The position numbers and the translations under genes were made by a program. This document shows positions 12,452 through 57,144 of a stretch of 64,000 bases of DNA, in pieces. The DNA lies in NCBI GenBank assembly GCA_017453325.1, contig JAFTKK010000040.1:11022-75021 (forward strand). The letters run 5' to 3'. Positions within the stretch are counted from its first letter, which is position 1. Every line of letters begins with the position of its first letter. The notes below the pieces were generated by a model. That model searched no databases. It saw only the letters and a program-made list of their open reading frames with translations, and was not told where the DNA came from. The DNA comes from Clostridia bacterium (GTDB lineage: Bacteria > Bacillota > Clostridia > Oscillospirales > CAG-272).

Positions 12452-12481
12452 TAAAAAAGGCGTGCTAAGCACGCCTTTTTT
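12452..12481. terminator. Bidirectional terminator at the left edge of XRE module 1
   Basis: aaaaaaggcgtgct-a-agcacgcctttttt. Confidence 0.8.
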
Positions 12482-12698
12482 ACTGTAATTTTTTCGGACT
12501 ATCGGTAAGGCCGGCAAGATAATCGAGGCTGACATTATAAAACCTAGCCAGTTCAATAGCGCGGCTAAACGGCATTTCTCTTTTGCCGGATTCATAGGTA
12601 CTGTAATACTGATATGTGGTGTTTAAAACCTTAGCAATATCCTGTTGGGTCAAGTCTCTGTCTTCTCGCATGTCTCTGATGCGTTGTGCATATTTCAT
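12480..12698 (-). CDS. XRE/Cro-CI family HTH repressor (72 aa), module 1
   Basis: RIRDMREDRDLTQQDIAKVLNTTYQYYSTYESGKR...LARFYNVSLDYLAG; RBS ggagg before ATG 12698. Confidence 0.9.
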   Translation of the reverse strand: MKYAQRIRDMREDRDLTQQDIAKVLNTTYQYYSTYESGKREMPFSRAIELARFYNVSLDYLAGLTDSPKKLQ

Positions 12699-12737
12699 AA
12701 TTTGATCCTCCAACGCCTGTAAATTCGAACAAATCTT

Positions 12738-12806
12738 ATCACATATGATGGGTTCGACTTGACTTTTTAATCACATGTGGTTATAATTAAGTAAATCACA
12801 TCTGAT
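12738..12806. promoter_or_regulatory. Divergent promoters with three ATCA-N4-TGAT operators
   Basis: ATCACATATGAT 12738-12749, ATCACATGTGGT 12770-12781, ATCACATCTGAT 12795-12806; + strand TTGACT (12759-12764)-17-TATAAT (12782-12787); minus-strand extended -10 TGaTAAGAT overlaps site 1. Confidence 0.8.
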
Positions 12807-12820
12807 TAAAGAGGACTTTT

Positions 12821-13093
12821 ATGAAAAAAATAATCGAGGCGCTATGGCACGAAACACATATCTTGCCCTGCGAAGAAAGCTTTTTGGCAAATCCACAATA
12901 TAAAAAATTATTGCAGACACGCAGTACGGCACGTGAAAAGCTGGAGACGGCACTGAGCGAGAAACAAAAGTGTTTGCTATCCGAATTCGATGATTGCGGT
13001 ACAGAATTGTCAAAATTCTGCGAAAAGGAAATATTCGTCCGTGGCTTTCGTCTCGGTGCGCAGTTGATGCTTGAAATGCTCTCCAAAGAGTAA
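12821..13093 (+). CDS. Small helical protein resembling DUF6809, module 1
   Basis: 90 aa; MKKIIEALW...EKLETALSEKQK...FVRGFRLGAQLMLE; RBS aagagga. Confidence 0.75.
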   Translation: MKKIIEALWHETHILPCEESFLANPQYKKLLQTRSTAREKLETALSEKQKCLLSEFDDCGTELSKFCEKEIFVRGFRLGAQLMLEMLSKE

Positions 13094-28709: not shown

Positions 28710-29660
28710 ATGAGAGAATTTTTAACCGAAGAAAATTTTAAAACCGAAATGGCAACGGCCGTGCTGCCCTACCTTTTTGCGCGCCGTGCCGAAAAAACCG
28801 TTTCTGCGCCCGACGGCAGCGCGCTCTTTACCTGCCATTACGCAGCAGACGGGGCGCGCGGCACGGTGGTGCTGGTGCACGGCTTTTCGGAAAATGCAGA
28901 GAAATACCACGAGTTTATCTATTACCTGCTGCAAGAGCACCTCTCGGTGCTGATCTTTGATCAGCGGGGTCACGGACGCTCGGCGCGCGCGGCACCTGTC
29001 GGTGTGGTGCACGTGAGCCGTTTTTCCGATTACGTGGCCGACCTTGAGGCGATTCTGGCGGCATATGACGGCGAGCTTGTGACGCCCCTTTATCTGTTTG
29101 CCCACTCGATGGGCGGCGCCGTAGCCACGCTTTTTCTCAAAAAGCACAGGGACGTGTTTAAAAAAGCGGTGCTTTCTGCCCCGATGGCCGATCTGCAATA
29201 TCGCGGCATCACACGCCTTGCCTGCCGCGCAGCCTGCCGCTTTTGCACGCTGACGGGACGCGCGAAAAGGGCGGTCTTTATTTCTAAAAAGGACTATGAG
29301 AACGAGCCCTTTGAGCGCTCCTCCGCGCTCTCGCGCGCACGCTTTACCTATCTGCGCGACCAGCGGCGCAGCGATCCGCTGCTCAGCGGAGGCGCACCGA
29401 GCTATGCCTGGAGTGCGGCGGCTTTGGGGGTGCGGGGCAGGATCCTTGGGCGCGGCGTGCCCGAGCAGCTGCACCTGCCCGTGCTGCTTCTTTCGGCCGA
29501 GCACGAATACCTGGTAAACAACGCGGCACAGGAGGCGCTTGTTGCGCGCTTACCGCAGGGCAGGCTGAGACGCGTTGCCGGCAGCAAGCACGAGATCCTG
29601 TTCACCAATGACGAGATTTTGCACCCCGTATTGGGGGAAATACTGGATTTTTTGCAATAA
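28710..29660 (+). CDS. Lysophospholipase L2-like alpha/beta hydrolase
   Basis: VHGFSE, DQRGHGRS, AHSMGG, SKHEIL; upstream TTGACA-17-TATACT. Confidence 0.85.
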   Translation: MREFLTEENFKTEMATAVLPYLFARRAEKTVSAPDGSALFTCHYAADGARGTVVLVHGFSENAEKYHEFIYYLLQEHLSVLIFDQRGHGRSARAAPVGVVHVSRFSDYVADLEAILAAYDGELVTPLYLFAHSMGGAVATLFLKKHRDVFKKAVLSAPMADLQYRGITRLACRAACRFCTLTGRAKRAVFISKKDYENEPFERSSALSRARFTYLRDQRRSDPLLSGGAPSYAWSAAALGVRGRILGRGVPEQLHLPVLLLSAEHEYLVNNAAQEALVARLPQGRLRRVAGSKHEILFTNDEILHPVLGEILDFLQ

Positions 29661-53949: not shown

Positions 53950-56193
53950 TTATTGAGCGAAATGGTAAGTGCCGCCACCGACGGTCTCGGTATAGCCGCC
54001 GGGCAGCAGGACGGTAGCCTCGGTGCCTTGCGGCACGGTAAACTCATAATACACGGTCTCCCCCTTATAATACCAGTTGCTTTCAATTCTGCCGCACACG
54101 GTATCAAGCGCACAGTTGATATGTCCCAGTCGTTTGTCGGGGTGAGGGGCGAGGGTGAATTTCCGATAACCTGCTGCGCGCTCATCAAACGTGATGCCTG
54201 CGGCAACGCCGTAGATCCAATCGCACACCGAGCCGTAAGCATAGTGATTAAAGGAGTTCATGCTCGTGCTCCAGAAGCTGCCGTCCTCCTTTTGGCTGTT
54301 CCAATGCTCCCACATGGTGGTGGCACCGTGCGTGACCGAATAAAGCCAGGAGGGATTGCGCTCCTCAAAGAGCAAGCGGTAAGCAAGATCGGTGCGGCCT
54401 GCGGCCGTCAGCACATGGAGAATATAGGGTGTGCCCACGAAGCCCGTGGTCATGCGCCCGTCAAAGCCCTCGATCAGCTCGACCAGCTTGGAGACAAGCG
54501 CGGGGCGCTCTGTCTCGTCGCAAAGGCCGAAATGCAGGATCAGCACGAGGGCGGTTTGCGTCACGCCCCGACGGAACGGATCGCGCGGCTCGCCCTTATC
54601 GTTGAAGGAGGTGGCGGGAAATTGCTCCTTTGGCATGCCGTTTTCCATGAAATAATCACGGAAGGTGCGGCGCACGTTCTCGCGCAGGGTGCGATAGTCG
54701 GCTACATCCTCGCCTAACACCTCGCCCGCCTTGACGACAAGGTCGGCGGAGTGATAGAAAAAGGCGGAGGCGATGAGGTCGGTTGAGGTAGCGCCCATGT
54801 ACACGTCGGGACCCGCATCCATAGCGAGCCAGTCACCGTAGTGATAACCGCCGAGCCAGAGATATTCCTCCGCGCCCGCACTATGCTGGTAATCGACCCA
54901 GCGCTTCATGAGGTTAAAGTTCTCACAAAGGATCTGCTTGTCGCCGTAGGCGCAGTAGAGCTCCCACGGAATGACGGTGGCACAGTCGCCCCATGCGGCG
55001 GAAACGCGCGTGTACGCACCAACCACACCCGAGGGCACCACGCCAAGAACCGCGCCATCCTCACGCTGCTCGGCGCGCACGTCGGCCAGCCATTTTTCAA
55101 AAAATTTGCGCACATCGTAATTATAAGCGGCAGTGCGGCAGAAAACCTGGGCATCACCCGTCCAGCCAAGGCGCTCGTCACGCTGGGGGCAATCGGTGGG
55201 AAGATCAAGATAATTGCTCTTCTGACCCCAGACGGTATTGTGATAAAGCTGGTTGATCTTGGCATTGCCCGTGACAAGACGGCCCGTGCGCGCCATGTCG
55301 CTGTGCACGGCGATGGCGCGGAAGTCGCGCGGCTCTACCGCCTCGGCCGGGTAGCTGTCAAGGCGAACATAGCGGAAGCCCTGGAAGGAAAAGCGCGGCT
55401 TAAAGACGCGCGGCGTGCCATCCGAAACATAGATGATCTTGTTTTTTGCCGAGCGATAATTTTCGGTATAAAAATTACCCTCGCGATCCAGCACCTCGGC
55501 AAAGGAAAGCTCGATGCGGTCACCTGCCTTGCCACAGTAGGTCAGCTCCACGTAGCCCGTCATATTCTGCCCGAAATCGAGCACGCGCTCACCCTTCGGC
55601 GTGGTGAAAAGCGATACGGGTGCGAGGCGCTCGTGCTCGGTGATGTCCTCGCCCAGCTGCGGCACCAAGGGGAATTTTTCGCAGGTCGCGTCGGGGGTGG
55701 CGTTGCCAAGACGGGTGATGGGTGCGGTATAGTCAACGGTTTCGCCGTCGTAGATATCGGAAAAGAGGACGGGTGAGGTGAAAACCTCCCACGTGCCATC
55801 GGTCACCACGGTTTCGGCGGTGCCGTCGGCATAACAAAGCGACAGCTCGGCGGTGACGGCATAATGATCGTGATAGGTCTTGCCGGCAGCCTTCCAGCCC
55901 AGCTTTCCGACCGCCCAGCCGGGGGCGCCCGTGATCTCGATGCGCGCTTCCCCCGACATCATATCGGTGACGTCAAAGGTCATATACTGCAGGCGCTTGT
56001 CATATGCGGTATAGCCGGGCGTCAGCACGGCCTTTCCCACCTTTTTACCCCCAATACGGGCTTCAAAAAGGCCAATAGCCGAGACCGAAAGCGCGGCGCT
56101 TTCAAGCGGCTTTTTTAAAGAGACGGTTTTGGCAAACACACAGGAGGCGCTCCCCATCGGCACAGGGGCGGTGATCCAATTCTTGTTGTTCAT
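53950..56193 (-). CDS. Alpha-L-rhamnosidase (GH78)
   Basis: DFGQNMTG, GFRYV, PTDCPQRDERLGWTGD, YGDW, TGFVG, GATTMWE.W, SFNHY. Confidence 0.92.
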   Translation of the reverse strand: MNNKNWITAPVPMGSASCVFAKTVSLKKPLESAALSVSAIGLFEARIGGKKVGKAVLTPGYTAYDKRLQYMTFDVTDMMSGEARIEITGAPGWAVGKLGWKAAGKTYHDHYAVTAELSLCYADGTAETVVTDGTWEVFTSPVLFSDIYDGETVDYTAPITRLGNATPDATCEKFPLVPQLGEDITEHERLAPVSLFTTPKGERVLDFGQNMTGYVELTYCGKAGDRIELSFAEVLDREGNFYTENYRSAKNKIIYVSDGTPRVFKPRFSFQGFRYVRLDSYPAEAVEPRDFRAIAVHSDMARTGRLVTGNAKINQLYHNTVWGQKSNYLDLPTDCPQRDERLGWTGDAQVFCRTAAYNYDVRKFFEKWLADVRAEQREDGAVLGVVPSGVVGAYTRVSAAWGDCATVIPWELYCAYGDKQILCENFNLMKRWVDYQHSAGAEEYLWLGGYHYGDWLAMDAGPDVYMGATSTDLIASAFFYHSADLVVKAGEVLGEDVADYRTLRENVRRTFRDYFMENGMPKEQFPATSFNDKGEPRDPFRRGVTQTALVLILHFGLCDETERPALVSKLVELIEGFDGRMTTGFVGTPYILHVLTAAGRTDLAYRLLFEERNPSWLYSVTHGATTMWEHWNSQKEDGSFWSTSMNSFNHYAYGSVCDWIYGVAAGITFDERAAGYRKFTLAPHPDKRLGHINCALDTVCGRIESNWYYKGETVYYEFTVPQGTEATVLLPGGYTETVGGGTYHFAQ

Positions 56194-56387
56194 TCTCGTT
56201 CTCATTCTCCTTTCATGCGGAAGGCACACCGAGGCGTACTGATTTCATCATATCAAAAAATTCGCCGTTGTCAAGCGCAGGTGAAAAAAAGGCGCAAATC
56301 GGAATAAGTAAAAGGGTAGCCGTAAAGGAATCGAACTGCCGCCTTGATGAAATACAACAAACGTATTTTTCTGTGACGCAAAAGATT

Positions 56388-56657
56388 TTATTTTCCAAAA
56401 TTCCCCGCGTCCAAGAGAAATGAAACACCAAATTCGCACCCTGTGAAAAACGCCTTCTTTACAAAAAGTGCCTCCATATCGTACAATGCCTCAACATATT
56501 TTTCCACCGCCTGCTCTTGTTCTTTATTAAGCAAAGCACTTGCTTTTTCGTGTAGCTCTGCGGCCTTTTTTGTCAGCTTTCGCTCTTCATCCGTATCAAT
56601 TGCGGCGCATTCGCCCGACAAATAGTCATTCCATAGCTTTGCAAGTGTTTCTTTCAT
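56388..56657 (-). CDS. Small helical protein resembling DUF6809, module 2
   Basis: 89 aa; MKETLAKLW...EKASALLNKEQ...KAFFTGCEFGVSFLL, same pattern as 12821..13093; RBS gggagg. Confidence 0.7.
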   Translation of the reverse strand: MKETLAKLWNDYLSGECAAIDTDEERKLTKKAAELHEKASALLNKEQEQAVEKYVEALYDMEALFVKKAFFTGCEFGVSFLLDAGNFGK

Positions 56658-56673
56658 TTTCTTCCTCCCTCAA

Positions 56674-56752
56674 TAGTCCAAAAGCGAACTAAATATAGTA
56701 TAGTTCAGATGCGAACTAAAGTCAACCCTTTTTAGTTTATTTGTGCTATAAT
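56674..56752. promoter_or_regulatory. Divergent promoters with TAGTTC-N6-GAACTA operators
   Basis: TAGTCC-aaaagc-GAACTA 56674-56691; TAGTTC-agatgc-GAACTA 56701-56718; minus strand TTGACT (56720-56725)-17-TATACT (56697-56702); + strand extended -10 TGcTATAAT 56744-56752. Confidence 0.8.
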
Positions 56753-56778
56753 TTTTAAAAAAGCACAGGGTGATAAAA

Positions 56779-56997
56779 ATGGATGTATATCAAAGGCTAA
56801 AAAACCTAAGGGAAGACGCTGATAAAAGTCAGGAAGAAATTGCAAAAATCATAGGTACCAGTCAATCTTATTACGCCCAGTATGAAAACGGAAAAAGAGC
56901 CATTCCGTTTGAGCGCATGGTCGCTTTGGCAAGATATTACAATGTTTCTCTTGACTATCTGGCAGGATTTATCGACACACCGAAAAAGCTTAAATAG
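56779..56997 (+). CDS. XRE/Cro-CI family HTH repressor (72 aa), module 2
   Basis: RLKNLREDADKSQEEIAKIIGTSQSYYAQYENGKR...LARYYNVSLDYLAG. Confidence 0.9.
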   Translation: MDVYQRLKNLREDADKSQEEIAKIIGTSQSYYAQYENGKRAIPFERMVALARYYNVSLDYLAGFIDTPKKLK

Positions 56998-57002
56998 CTA
57001 AC

Positions 57003-57048
57003 AATAAAAAAGGACGAAGAATTTTTACATTCTTCGTCCTTTTTTATT
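57003..57048. terminator. Bidirectional terminator at the right edge of XRE module 2
   Basis: aataaaaaaggacgaagaat-ttttac-attcttcgtccttttttatt. Confidence 0.8.
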
Positions 57049-57144
57049 ATTGATATGATCAAAGACAGCAATCTTGTCAAAAGCCTATTCGCTTACCTTT
57101 CGGCAATAAAGCCCCTGTAGTGCAAGACGGATTATGACCCTTCG

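Follow-up and report, generated by a model that had tools for sequence, protein, structure and literature searches.

INTRODUCTION

Several described systems place a small repressor of the XRE type beside the genes that it controls, and the locus analyzed here, a cassette of two divergent genes called module 2, shares features with a number of them. Module 2 lies in a 64,000-nucleotide (nt) stretch of contig JAFTKK010000040.1 from a Clostridia bacterium (assembly GCA_017453325.1); this stretch is the window, and positions are counted from its first letter. The cassette encodes XRE2, a repressor of 72 amino acids (aa), and a partner protein of the DUF6809 family; a second cassette of the window, module 1, encodes XRE1 and another DUF6809 protein. 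Among the described systems, the C proteins of restriction-modification are XRE dimers of ~75 aa, which bind pairs of palindromes (OL/OR) at the promoter of their own gene and fall into specificity groups. In the RS1 element, the gene for the small protein RstC lies in the operon repressed by RstR. In CTXphi, rstR is divergent from rstA and differing rstR alleles result in type-specific heteroimmunity, while the small antirepressor RstC of CTXphi/RS1 is said to inactivate RstR (PMC7326730). A small protein and an XRE repressor also form the AimX/AimC pair (preprint 10.1101/2025.11.23.689978). Finally, for Clostridium thermocellum Xre_2225, DNA affinity purification sequencing gave the motif TACATC-N6-GATGTA, which occurs twice upstream of clo1313_2226-2225, and on the basis of prediction Xre_2225 is labeled a putative type II antitoxin (PMC8457756); Clo1313_2225/2226 turned up in this paper alone in the literature searched.

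We think it probable that module 2 is an orphan cassette, complete in itself and exchanged horizontally, which is built on the immunity design of filamentous phages and in which the DUF6809 gene would be kept off and the XRE gene autoregulated. The evidence comes from the arrangement of its operators, from the co-variation of recognition helix and operator among its relatives, from the exchange of the specificity segment and from the kinship of XRE2 with repressors of gut Inoviridae.

RESULTS AND DISCUSSION

Two strong operators and a weak one lie across the promoters of module 2

The XRE2 and DUF6809 genes are divergent and separated by an intergenic region of 121 nt, the start of XRE2 being an internal ATG of the open reading frame (ORF) at 56770-56997 (Table 1). 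An earlier reading of the letters alone (the sequence-only reading) had described a TTGACT-17-TATACT promoter for the partner gene and an extended -10 for the XRE gene, and both agree with a promoter scan and with direct reading of the sequence. It had also placed one operator in the promoter spacer and a second between the -10 and the ribosome-binding site (RBS). We find both where it put them, and O1 is perfect, but O2 deviates at one position (TAGTCC). O2 sits between the TATACT -10 and the GAGGGAGG RBS of the DUF6809 gene, and O1 and O2 together form a direct repeat, D1, spaced 27 bp. A third, degenerate site, O3, which that reading did not contain, is closer to consensus in those relatives of XRE2 that carry the same helix (class A, below), where TAGTTC-ATTTGT-G.TATA is kept. 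The TTGACT-17-TATACT layout likewise recurs among relatives, and TG.TATAAT is kept in most related XRE loci. Module 1 has three copies of AATCAC-N2-GTGATT-like palindromes.

Table 1. Positions of features in module 2 and module 1
Feature	Position	Strand	Basis or placement
DUF6809 partner gene (89 aa, acidic, all-helical)	56388-56657	-	ORF and Pfam PF20648
RBS of DUF6809 gene, GAGGGAGGAAG	56661-56671	-	read from sequence
Operator O2, TAGTCC-N6-GAACTA, 1 mismatch	56674-56691		between -10 and RBS of DUF6809 promoter
DUF6809 promoter, TTGACT-17-TATACT	56725..56697	-	promoter scan, 10/12 matches
Operator O1, perfect TAGTTC-N6-GAACTA	56701-56718		fills DUF6809 promoter spacer
Degenerate operator O3, TAGTTT-N6-GCTATA	56733-56750		overlaps XRE -10; read from sequence
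XRE2 extended -10, TGcTATAAT	56744-56752	+	read from sequence
XRE2 repressor, 72 aa, DNA-reading segment residues 27-47	56779-56997	+	Pfam HTH_3
Bidirectional intrinsic terminator 3' of XRE gene	57000-57051		23-nt inverted repeat I1 and fold
Module 1, whole	12480-13093		
Module 1, XRE1	12480-12698	-	
Module 1, intergenic region	12699-12820		
Module 1, DUF6809 gene	12821-13093	+	

Chance does not account for the pair of strong sites. Allowing at most one mismatch, the window holds two matches, O1 and O2, where 0.04 would be expected; a count of two was not reached in any of 100 shuffles. The whole assembly (1.97 Mb) contains O1, O2 and one further 1-mismatch site at that stringency, and nothing else. 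The remaining site, TAGTCC-N6-GAAATA with 1 mismatch, is at 29279-29296 of the window (G000:C22:40300-40317) and is probably a chance occurrence.

From this arrangement, XRE2, as a single domain of 72 aa, would most likely bind as a dimer to the 18-bp palindromes TAGTYC-N6-GAACTA. Occupancy of O1 and O2, which cover the promoter spacer and the first part of the transcribed region, would shut off the DUF6809 gene, and the weak O3, over the extended -10 of the XRE gene, would provide negative autoregulation. DUF6809, predicted to be the regulated output and perhaps a small factor that binds other proteins and stems from a mobile element, would then be made only in cells where the repressor is lacking, has been diluted or is inactive, such as a naive cell that the cassette has just entered. 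The predicted regulatory logic, with two strong operators repressing the divergent gene, weak autorepression and a private specificity, is well supported by the placement of the sites and by comparison with relatives. The sequence-only reading had gone further and called the module a switch; the partner carries no DNA-binding signature, and bistability finds no support.

We also noted a conserved element in the 5' untranslated region, between the XRE promoter and the RBS, which runs ...CTACTTATTGCACAAAAA, hairpin GAGCCGTTTTCACGGCTC, then GGATTGGAG. It is seen in L004 (on contig C20 of the same genome), L050, L057, L068, L091 and most class B loci; it is thus common to several operator classes, and it is partly present in the phage bajarodino virus 76.

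XRE2 is a minimal XRE domain related to repressors of gut Inoviridae

As the sequence-only reading had counted, XRE1 and XRE2, both 72 aa, align without gaps with 40/72 residues identical (56%), differ in the recognition helix (TYQYYSTYE in XRE1, SQSYYAQYE in XRE2) and then share YNVSLDYLAG..D.PKKL. Both exceed the cut-off of 23 bits for Pfam HTH_3/XRE (XRE2, 68.4 bits; XRE1, 53.9 bits). The AlphaFold2 model of XRE2 (mean predicted local distance difference test score, pLDDT, 93.5) has five helices, at residues 3-13, 18-24, 29-36 (recognition), 44-53 and 58-61; its top Foldseek match is the DNA-binding domain of P22 c2 (template modeling score, TM, 0.84), and it superposes on the DNA-binding domains of P22 c2, 434, SinR, ImmR, DdrO and C-protein. 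Weak profile matches connect XRE2 to antitoxins of the HigA/MqsA/HipB/PezA type, and PADLOC "control protein" models match the XRE at E 2.9e-7. The best NCBIfam match is RstR (NF041951), but the scores of 48.9 and 47.3 bits fall short of its cut-off of 80, and only positions 1-64/68 of 108 are aligned; at this score XRE2 is not a member by the NF041951 model.

The nearest phage relatives bear out the analogy with phage immunity groups that the sequence-only reading had drawn, since they are divergent repressors of gut Inoviridae in the layout of rstR. A tblastn search with XRE2 against 50,697 phage records matched 44. Small circular Inoviridae of 4-9 kb make up 12 of these (nine named "bajarodino," three "Dulem"), and all four that we opened were classified as Inoviridae. 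The best match, bajarodino virus 76, is 73.8% identical over residues 3-63 and carries the helix of XRE2. In 4/4 inspected inoviruses, the XRE gene is divergent from an operon with an RstB-like gene, replication initiator, structural genes and Zot, and the intergenic regions have back-to-back promoters with repeated palindromes, as in the cassettes; one inovirus has a TGATATAATCTACTTATT leader that is common in chromosomal loci. Among IMG/VR viral contigs, the XRE alignment (A4) found 50 loci, mostly on large caudoviral contigs and at most 63% identical, and a single-sequence query found no relative of the module 2 DUF6809 protein. No paper on "bajarodino" was found in the literature searched.

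Compared to CTXphi, module 2 thus has a small XRE repressor divergent from the genes it is predicted to repress, with intergenic operators as in RstR/ig-2, and XRE2 relatives hold the rstR position in the four gut Inoviridae inspected. The likeness extends to variation, as the repressor and operator region of CTXphi are reported to be highly divergent among otherwise similar elements (PMC7326730). In contrast to RstR, XRE2 has only 72 aa and no C-terminal extension, besides falling below the NCBIfam cut-off; its module is predicted to repress DUF6809 instead of replication genes; and module 2 has no phage genes nearby and belongs to gut Clostridia, not Vibrio. With the CI-Cro systems of lambdoid phages, 434 and P22, module 2 shares the fold, palindromic operators over back-to-back promoters and helix changes matched by operator changes, but it lacks the second, divergent DNA-binding protein of CI/Cro, and XRE2 has no oligomerization or cleavage domain. 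C.Csp231I and C.AhdI are among the fold matches of XRE2, although, unlike the case of the C proteins, the strong sites of module 2 lie at the promoter of the divergent gene rather than at that of the repressor, and no restriction or methylase gene adjoins module 2 or any other of the genome's four cassettes. Finally, AimC-AimX and SinR-SinI also encode an XRE-type repressor next to a very small helical protein (10.1101/2025.11.23.689978), and both 9iaq (AimC-like) and 1b0n are among the fold matches of XRE2. The DUF6809 partner, in contrast, has no similarity to AimX or SinI, is 89 aa long and is itself the gene under predicted repression.

Recognition segment and operator change together among relatives

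The sequence-only reading had predicted that helix residues and intergenic palindrome would co-vary among homologues, and this is what we find in 96 XRE genes. They come from a scan with the XRE alignment, one genome per species, which found 201 relatives; the best 80 loci, all from metagenome-assembled genomes (MAGs) of gut or rumen Clostridia, were combined with our first 34 loci. We defined helix classes by residues 27-35 and sought the five consensus palindromes in the 200 nt upstream, allowing at most 2 mismatches in 12. Each of the five classes has its own palindrome (Table 2). Matches to the operator of another class were zero, apart from the E pattern in 4/18 D loci; of shuffled sequences, ~1% matched. 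Further palindromes occupy the same two positions beside the 23 unclassed genes and in 20 additional regions (21 more XRE genes, from nine genomes of the same family). The class B operator resembles the motif of Xre_2225 as reported in PMC8457756; Xre_2225 may or may not belong to this XRE subfamily, and its neighbor to DUF6809.

Table 2. Helix classes, their operators and the frequency of a DUF6809 partner
Class	Helix (residues 27-35)	Consensus palindrome	Loci with own operator	Genes facing DUF6809
A	TSQSYYAQY	TAGTTC-N6-GAACTA	13/17	4/17
B	TRQQQYARW	TACAAC-N6-GTTGTA	15/16	15/16
C	TTYQYYSTY	AATCAC-N2-GTGATT	4/5	1/5
D	ISRQHYSLY	CATACG-N2-CGTATG	16/18	6/18
E	I[ST]RQQYQLY	GCATTC-N4-GAATGC	14/17	1/17
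Other				7/23

The columns that discriminate the classes are residues 27-47, while residues 1-26 and 48-70 form a shared scaffold. Low variation within classes at residues 27-35 is circular, as these residues define the classes, but residues 37 and 39-47 stand outside the definition and are equally class-specific. On the AlphaFold2 model, residues 27-47 comprise the recognition helix (29-36), the next loop and the start of helix 4.

Comparison of cassettes segment by segment indicates that these parts are also exchanged (Table 3). The cassette of the congener G130 has a class E helix and a class E operator, and its resemblance to module 2 is lowest in the intergenic region and in residues 27-47; L035 and L036 have the reverse pattern. 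Thus, the operator and the reading head have a history apart from the rest of the cassette, and they change jointly.

Table 3. Nucleotide identity of module 2 with three other cassettes, by segment
Cassette	DUF6809	Intergenic	XRE aa 1-26	XRE aa 27-47	XRE aa 48-72
G130 (congener)	79%	53%	63%	52%	79%
L035	65%	79%	81%	86%	87%
L036	67%	78%	82%	86%	75%

The genome that carries module 2 (91 contigs, 83% complete) has four DUF6809 genes, each divergent from an XRE gene of 72-82 aa. A fifth member of the XRE subfamily, of 71 aa and without a DUF6809 partner, is at G000:C67:32741-32929 (L125:1498-1713); its helix is IKQNTYSQY, which occurs beside a DUF6809 gene in L034, and its own palindrome is TTGAGATAT-N5-ATATCTCAA. 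The five XREs have five different recognition helices, and each has its own repeated palindrome at equal positions relative to the promoters. Module 2 shares neither its helix nor its operator with the other four XREs, and its regulation should therefore be independent of theirs. The sequence-only reading had attributed such diversification to selection against cross-talk, and here the data are no more than consistent with the proposal: in ~20 multi-copy genomes (leaving out L105, which is on the same contig as G086:C17), the same helix occurred within a genome in 0/47 pairs compared to 2.24 expected, an underpowered test (P = 0.098).

Two observations concern the arrangement and fate of individual copies. 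Two or three subfamily XREs stand in tandem in the same orientation at L113:1755-2452, L035, L053, L059, L074, L076, L096 and L104; at L113, three XREs follow one DUF6809 gene. No array has an identical 9-residue helix twice, although those of L104 differ by one residue and those of L096 by two. In L135 (G111:C10:10616-10831), a class E XRE gene has an in-frame TAA and no operator-bearing promoter upstream, and this copy is likely a pseudogene.

DUF6809 is one of several predicted outputs of the repressor family

The partners of modules 1 and 2 had seemed to share only a pattern. Their identity is indeed low (20-21%; BLASTP E 5e-4), yet both belong to DUF6809 by Pfam (PF20648; cut-off 27), with 38.6 bits over residues 1-83 in module 2 and 71.3 bits over residues 1-86 in module 1. 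Profile comparison of the partners had been set beforehand as a check, unrelated partners being taken as evidence against orthogonal copies of one system, and since both proteins pass the DUF6809 cut-off, they are not unrelated by profile.

No function has been assigned to the family, and the literature searched contained no paper that names DUF6809. The AlphaFold2 model of the module 2 protein (pLDDT 92.4) has helices at residues 2-17, 23-42 and 45-88. DUF6809 is the sole Pfam family above cut-off, with no match to a helix-turn-helix (HTH) or other DNA-binding family. Foldseek against PDB gave nothing at E <=0.001 for the model; the best hits of a wide VIA-align search were generic coiled coils (Z 6.1), under the meaningful range for helical proteins; and the DUF6809 profile found nothing below E 0.1 among PDB sequences. 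Searches of DUF6809 proteins against PADLOC (0 families), PHROGs (none at E <=1e-3; best 0.0025) and NCBIfam (nothing above cut-off) were likewise negative. Prediction of a complex of XRE2 with DUF6809 (alignments A4 and A5) gave 0.01 against a mark of 0.32, which counts neither for nor against binding. ESM Atlas neighbors of the partner proteins are DUF6809 clusters. DUF6809 proteins of the module 2 type form 227 protein clusters at E <=1e-3, with source names that are all "hypothetical protein," and the 120 clusters listed are all of 86-150 aa with at least 94% query cover.

Repressor and partner are often found apart, so that the minimal two-gene system proposed from the letters is not a fixed unit. 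Only 34/96 XRE genes face DUF6809 and 62/96 do not, with marked differences among classes (Table 2), and DUF6809 of the module 2 type accompanies XREs of classes A, B and E and of one further class. Other XRE partners are 81-aa HTH proteins, 58-aa proteins that look by eye like ribbon-helix-helix (RHH) proteins, or no ORF at all. With such varied partners, the XRE and its control region appear as a portable unit placed before different outputs. Conversely, DUF6809 is found in 96/201 genomes of the family, with up to 8 matches per genome, and among the 30 best-scoring family loci, 1/30 has a subfamily XRE; the remaining best loci are after TnpV-like genes, before or after integrases, or beside other HTH genes. 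Most of the high-scoring DUF6809 genes lie in the backbones of mobile elements. An ORF of ~127-134 aa, which we take to be TnpV-like, precedes DUF6809 in L005, L011, L014, L022 and L033. In L012 and L025, DUF6809 is directly upstream of a 390-aa integrase that resembles tyrosine recombinases by eye; the slot directly upstream of a tyrosine recombinase is the usual position of an excisionase.

Some class D and E loci without a partner have an operator-bearing leftward promoter followed by a conserved leader of ~22 nt (TGCAAGCTCCGATTGTCGCCAAA-like, CUCC) and then a hairpin of unrelated sequence with a T-run. The leftward transcripts, all on the minus strand, would be L053:1810-1867, L075:1830-1886, L082:1807-1869, L086:1804-1886 and L087:1819-1877. 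Judged by these signals, the unit looks like a small RNA of 57-83 nt repressed by the XRE; Rfam has no match for these short leftward transcripts.

Module 2 is an indel between congeners and both of its genes are under selection

In the genome G043, the flanking genes are 114 nt apart, which constitutes an empty site, so the cassette is an indel of ~800 bp; homology among congeners is limited to 56384-56996. In contrast, G192 has a cassette that is 81% identical, with unrelated genes on either side. The DNA downstream of DUF6809 is unrelated host sequence, often past a terminator, in the 23 XRE-DUF6809 loci inspected. We found no target duplication, terminal repeats or recombinase at module 2. 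A 17-nt inverted pair (56243-56259 / 57047-57063) was rejected as a transposition signature, as it overlaps the neighbor's own promoter, and alignment of the flanks for direct repeats scored at the level of shuffled sequence.

Relative to the G192 orthologue, the nonsynonymous and synonymous divergence (dN/dS) is 0.18/0.79 (=0.23) for DUF6809 and 0.042/0.82 (=0.05) for the XRE gene. By this codon-level comparison, both cassette genes are under purifying selection.

A repressed, exchangeable cassette compared to other explanations

Several points weigh against the reading of module 2 as an exchangeable cassette on a filamentous-phage immunity design. None of the 147 bacterial loci has, within ~2 kb, a homologue of the other ORFs of the four inoviruses, and a search of the genome, which is 83% complete, gave no Zot. 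A DUF6809 profile found nothing in the two inoviruses searched, and tblastn with the DUF6809 proteins against the same 50,697 phage records gave 0 matches for module 2 and 2 weak ones for module 1. The filamentous-phage link is therefore one of repressor and control region alone. Moreover, the members of a class inherit the gene and its upstream region together, so that co-variation partly reflects shared descent. The repressor of bajarodino virus 76 has the helix of XRE2, yet its operators are somewhat different (TATTCC.. / ..GGACTA), and thus the 9-residue helix is not the whole code. Lastly, output of DUF6809 on entry into a naive cell is purely our inference.

We considered that DUF6809 might bind and inactivate the XRE, such that any leak would amplify itself and the module would be bistable, by analogy to RstC-RstR (PMC7326730) and AimX-AimC (10.1101/2025.11.23.689978), in which such small partners are described. 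Beyond these precedents, the AimC-like chain 9iaq is among the best structure and sequence matches of XRE2, the small, acidic, helical DUF6809 protein lacks any signature of DNA binding, and DUF6809 genes elsewhere are often beside other HTH regulators. We nevertheless regard antirepressor feedback as unlikely, given that the DUF6809 subtype is uncoupled from XRE class, that most XRE genes (62/96) do without DUF6809 and nearly all of the 30 top-scoring DUF6809 genes do without a subfamily XRE, and that the sequence and fold searches found no likeness of DUF6809 to a solved antirepressor. An addiction module, with DUF6809 as toxin and XRE as antitoxin and repressor, would explain the small size, the patchiness and the multiple orthogonal copies. 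The cassette is small, AT-rich and present or absent between congeners, XRE2 weakly matches antitoxin profiles, and Xre_2225, a possible relative with a class B-like motif, is called a type II antitoxin by prediction (PMC8457756). However, the two genes diverge from promoters of their own rather than being co-transcribed, DUF6809 is outside the toxin families recognized by Pfam, PADLOC and NCBIfam, and it is common without a subfamily XRE, beside TnpV-like or integrase genes, which is a poor fit to a toxin that needs its cognate antidote. Subfamily XREs elsewhere drive non-protein or HTH/RHH-like partners, and a purely transcriptional antidote should be unable to give post-segregational killing. 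Addiction is accordingly quite improbable in our view.

We consider least probable of all, and very improbable indeed, that module 2 is a functionless relic, all that is left of a decayed filamentous prophage or some other element, as might be suspected from the absence of other phage or element genes in its flanks and of a clear terminator behind the DUF6809 gene. Decay is at odds with two intact ORFs whose dN/dS is low at dS ~0.8, with the retention of the operators and both promoters, with the near full length of the listed DUF6809 clusters out of 227, and with the recurrence of the same compact XRE/DUF6809 unit in different chromosomal contexts. We therefore retain the repressed, exchangeable cassette as the best explanation of module 2, with XRE2 predicted to bind DNA, repress and act orthogonally to its paralogs.

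A broader function can be envisaged for these cassettes, although we hold it to be doubtful. The solitary XRE cassettes might form a chromosomal repertoire of immunity repressors that shields gut Clostridia from matching inoviruses or elements, with specificities gained by segment swap and with DUF6809 or a short RNA as an alarm or antirepressor output when the operator DNA of an incoming element titrates the repressor. If the cassettes do confer immunity, they would amount to a new, highly compact means of excluding phages or elements.

Specificity groups of repressors and operators are already known, as are mosaics of the rstR type. In contrast, solitary chromosomal cassettes of the XRE2 kind in gut Clostridia, several per genome, appear to be undescribed, as do the pairing of this XRE subfamily with DUF6809, the kinship of the cassette XREs with repressors of Gram-positive gut inoviruses, and the breadth of the helix/operator code on a single 72-aa scaffold. 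With five counted classes and more, ~15 in all, this natural repressor set amounts to a ready recognition code, and synthetic biology in Gram-positive hosts could draw orthogonal parts from the family. A link is also made between the filamentous phages of Gram-positive gut bacteria, which have hardly been studied, and orphan cassettes annotated as "hypothetical" that number in the hundreds in MAGs of gut Clostridia, and mosaic exchange of an immunity segment, as in CTXphi, is seen outside Vibrio. DUF6809 is tied to a defined regulatory input, by which its function becomes testable.

Chromosomal setting of module 2

The G+C content of module 2 is 39%, compared to ~55-60% in the rest of the window (~57% in the flanks). 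Its neighbors are a glycosidase gene and a gene of 174 aa. The sequencing runs listed as containing the region are two, both of DNA and possibly the source of the assembly, with no RNA run among them. The terminator after XRE2 is strong (-25.2 kcal/mol, z -8.1), while a fold scan of the region found no clear terminator after the DUF6809 gene; in Rfam, nothing reached the gathering score in the window. The DUF6809 gene is directed toward the glycosidase gene (53950-56229), whose own promoter, TTGACA-16-TATGAT, is at 56247-56274 (-). Since the DUF6809 gene has no terminator, transcription from a de-repressed cassette could read into the glycosidase gene.

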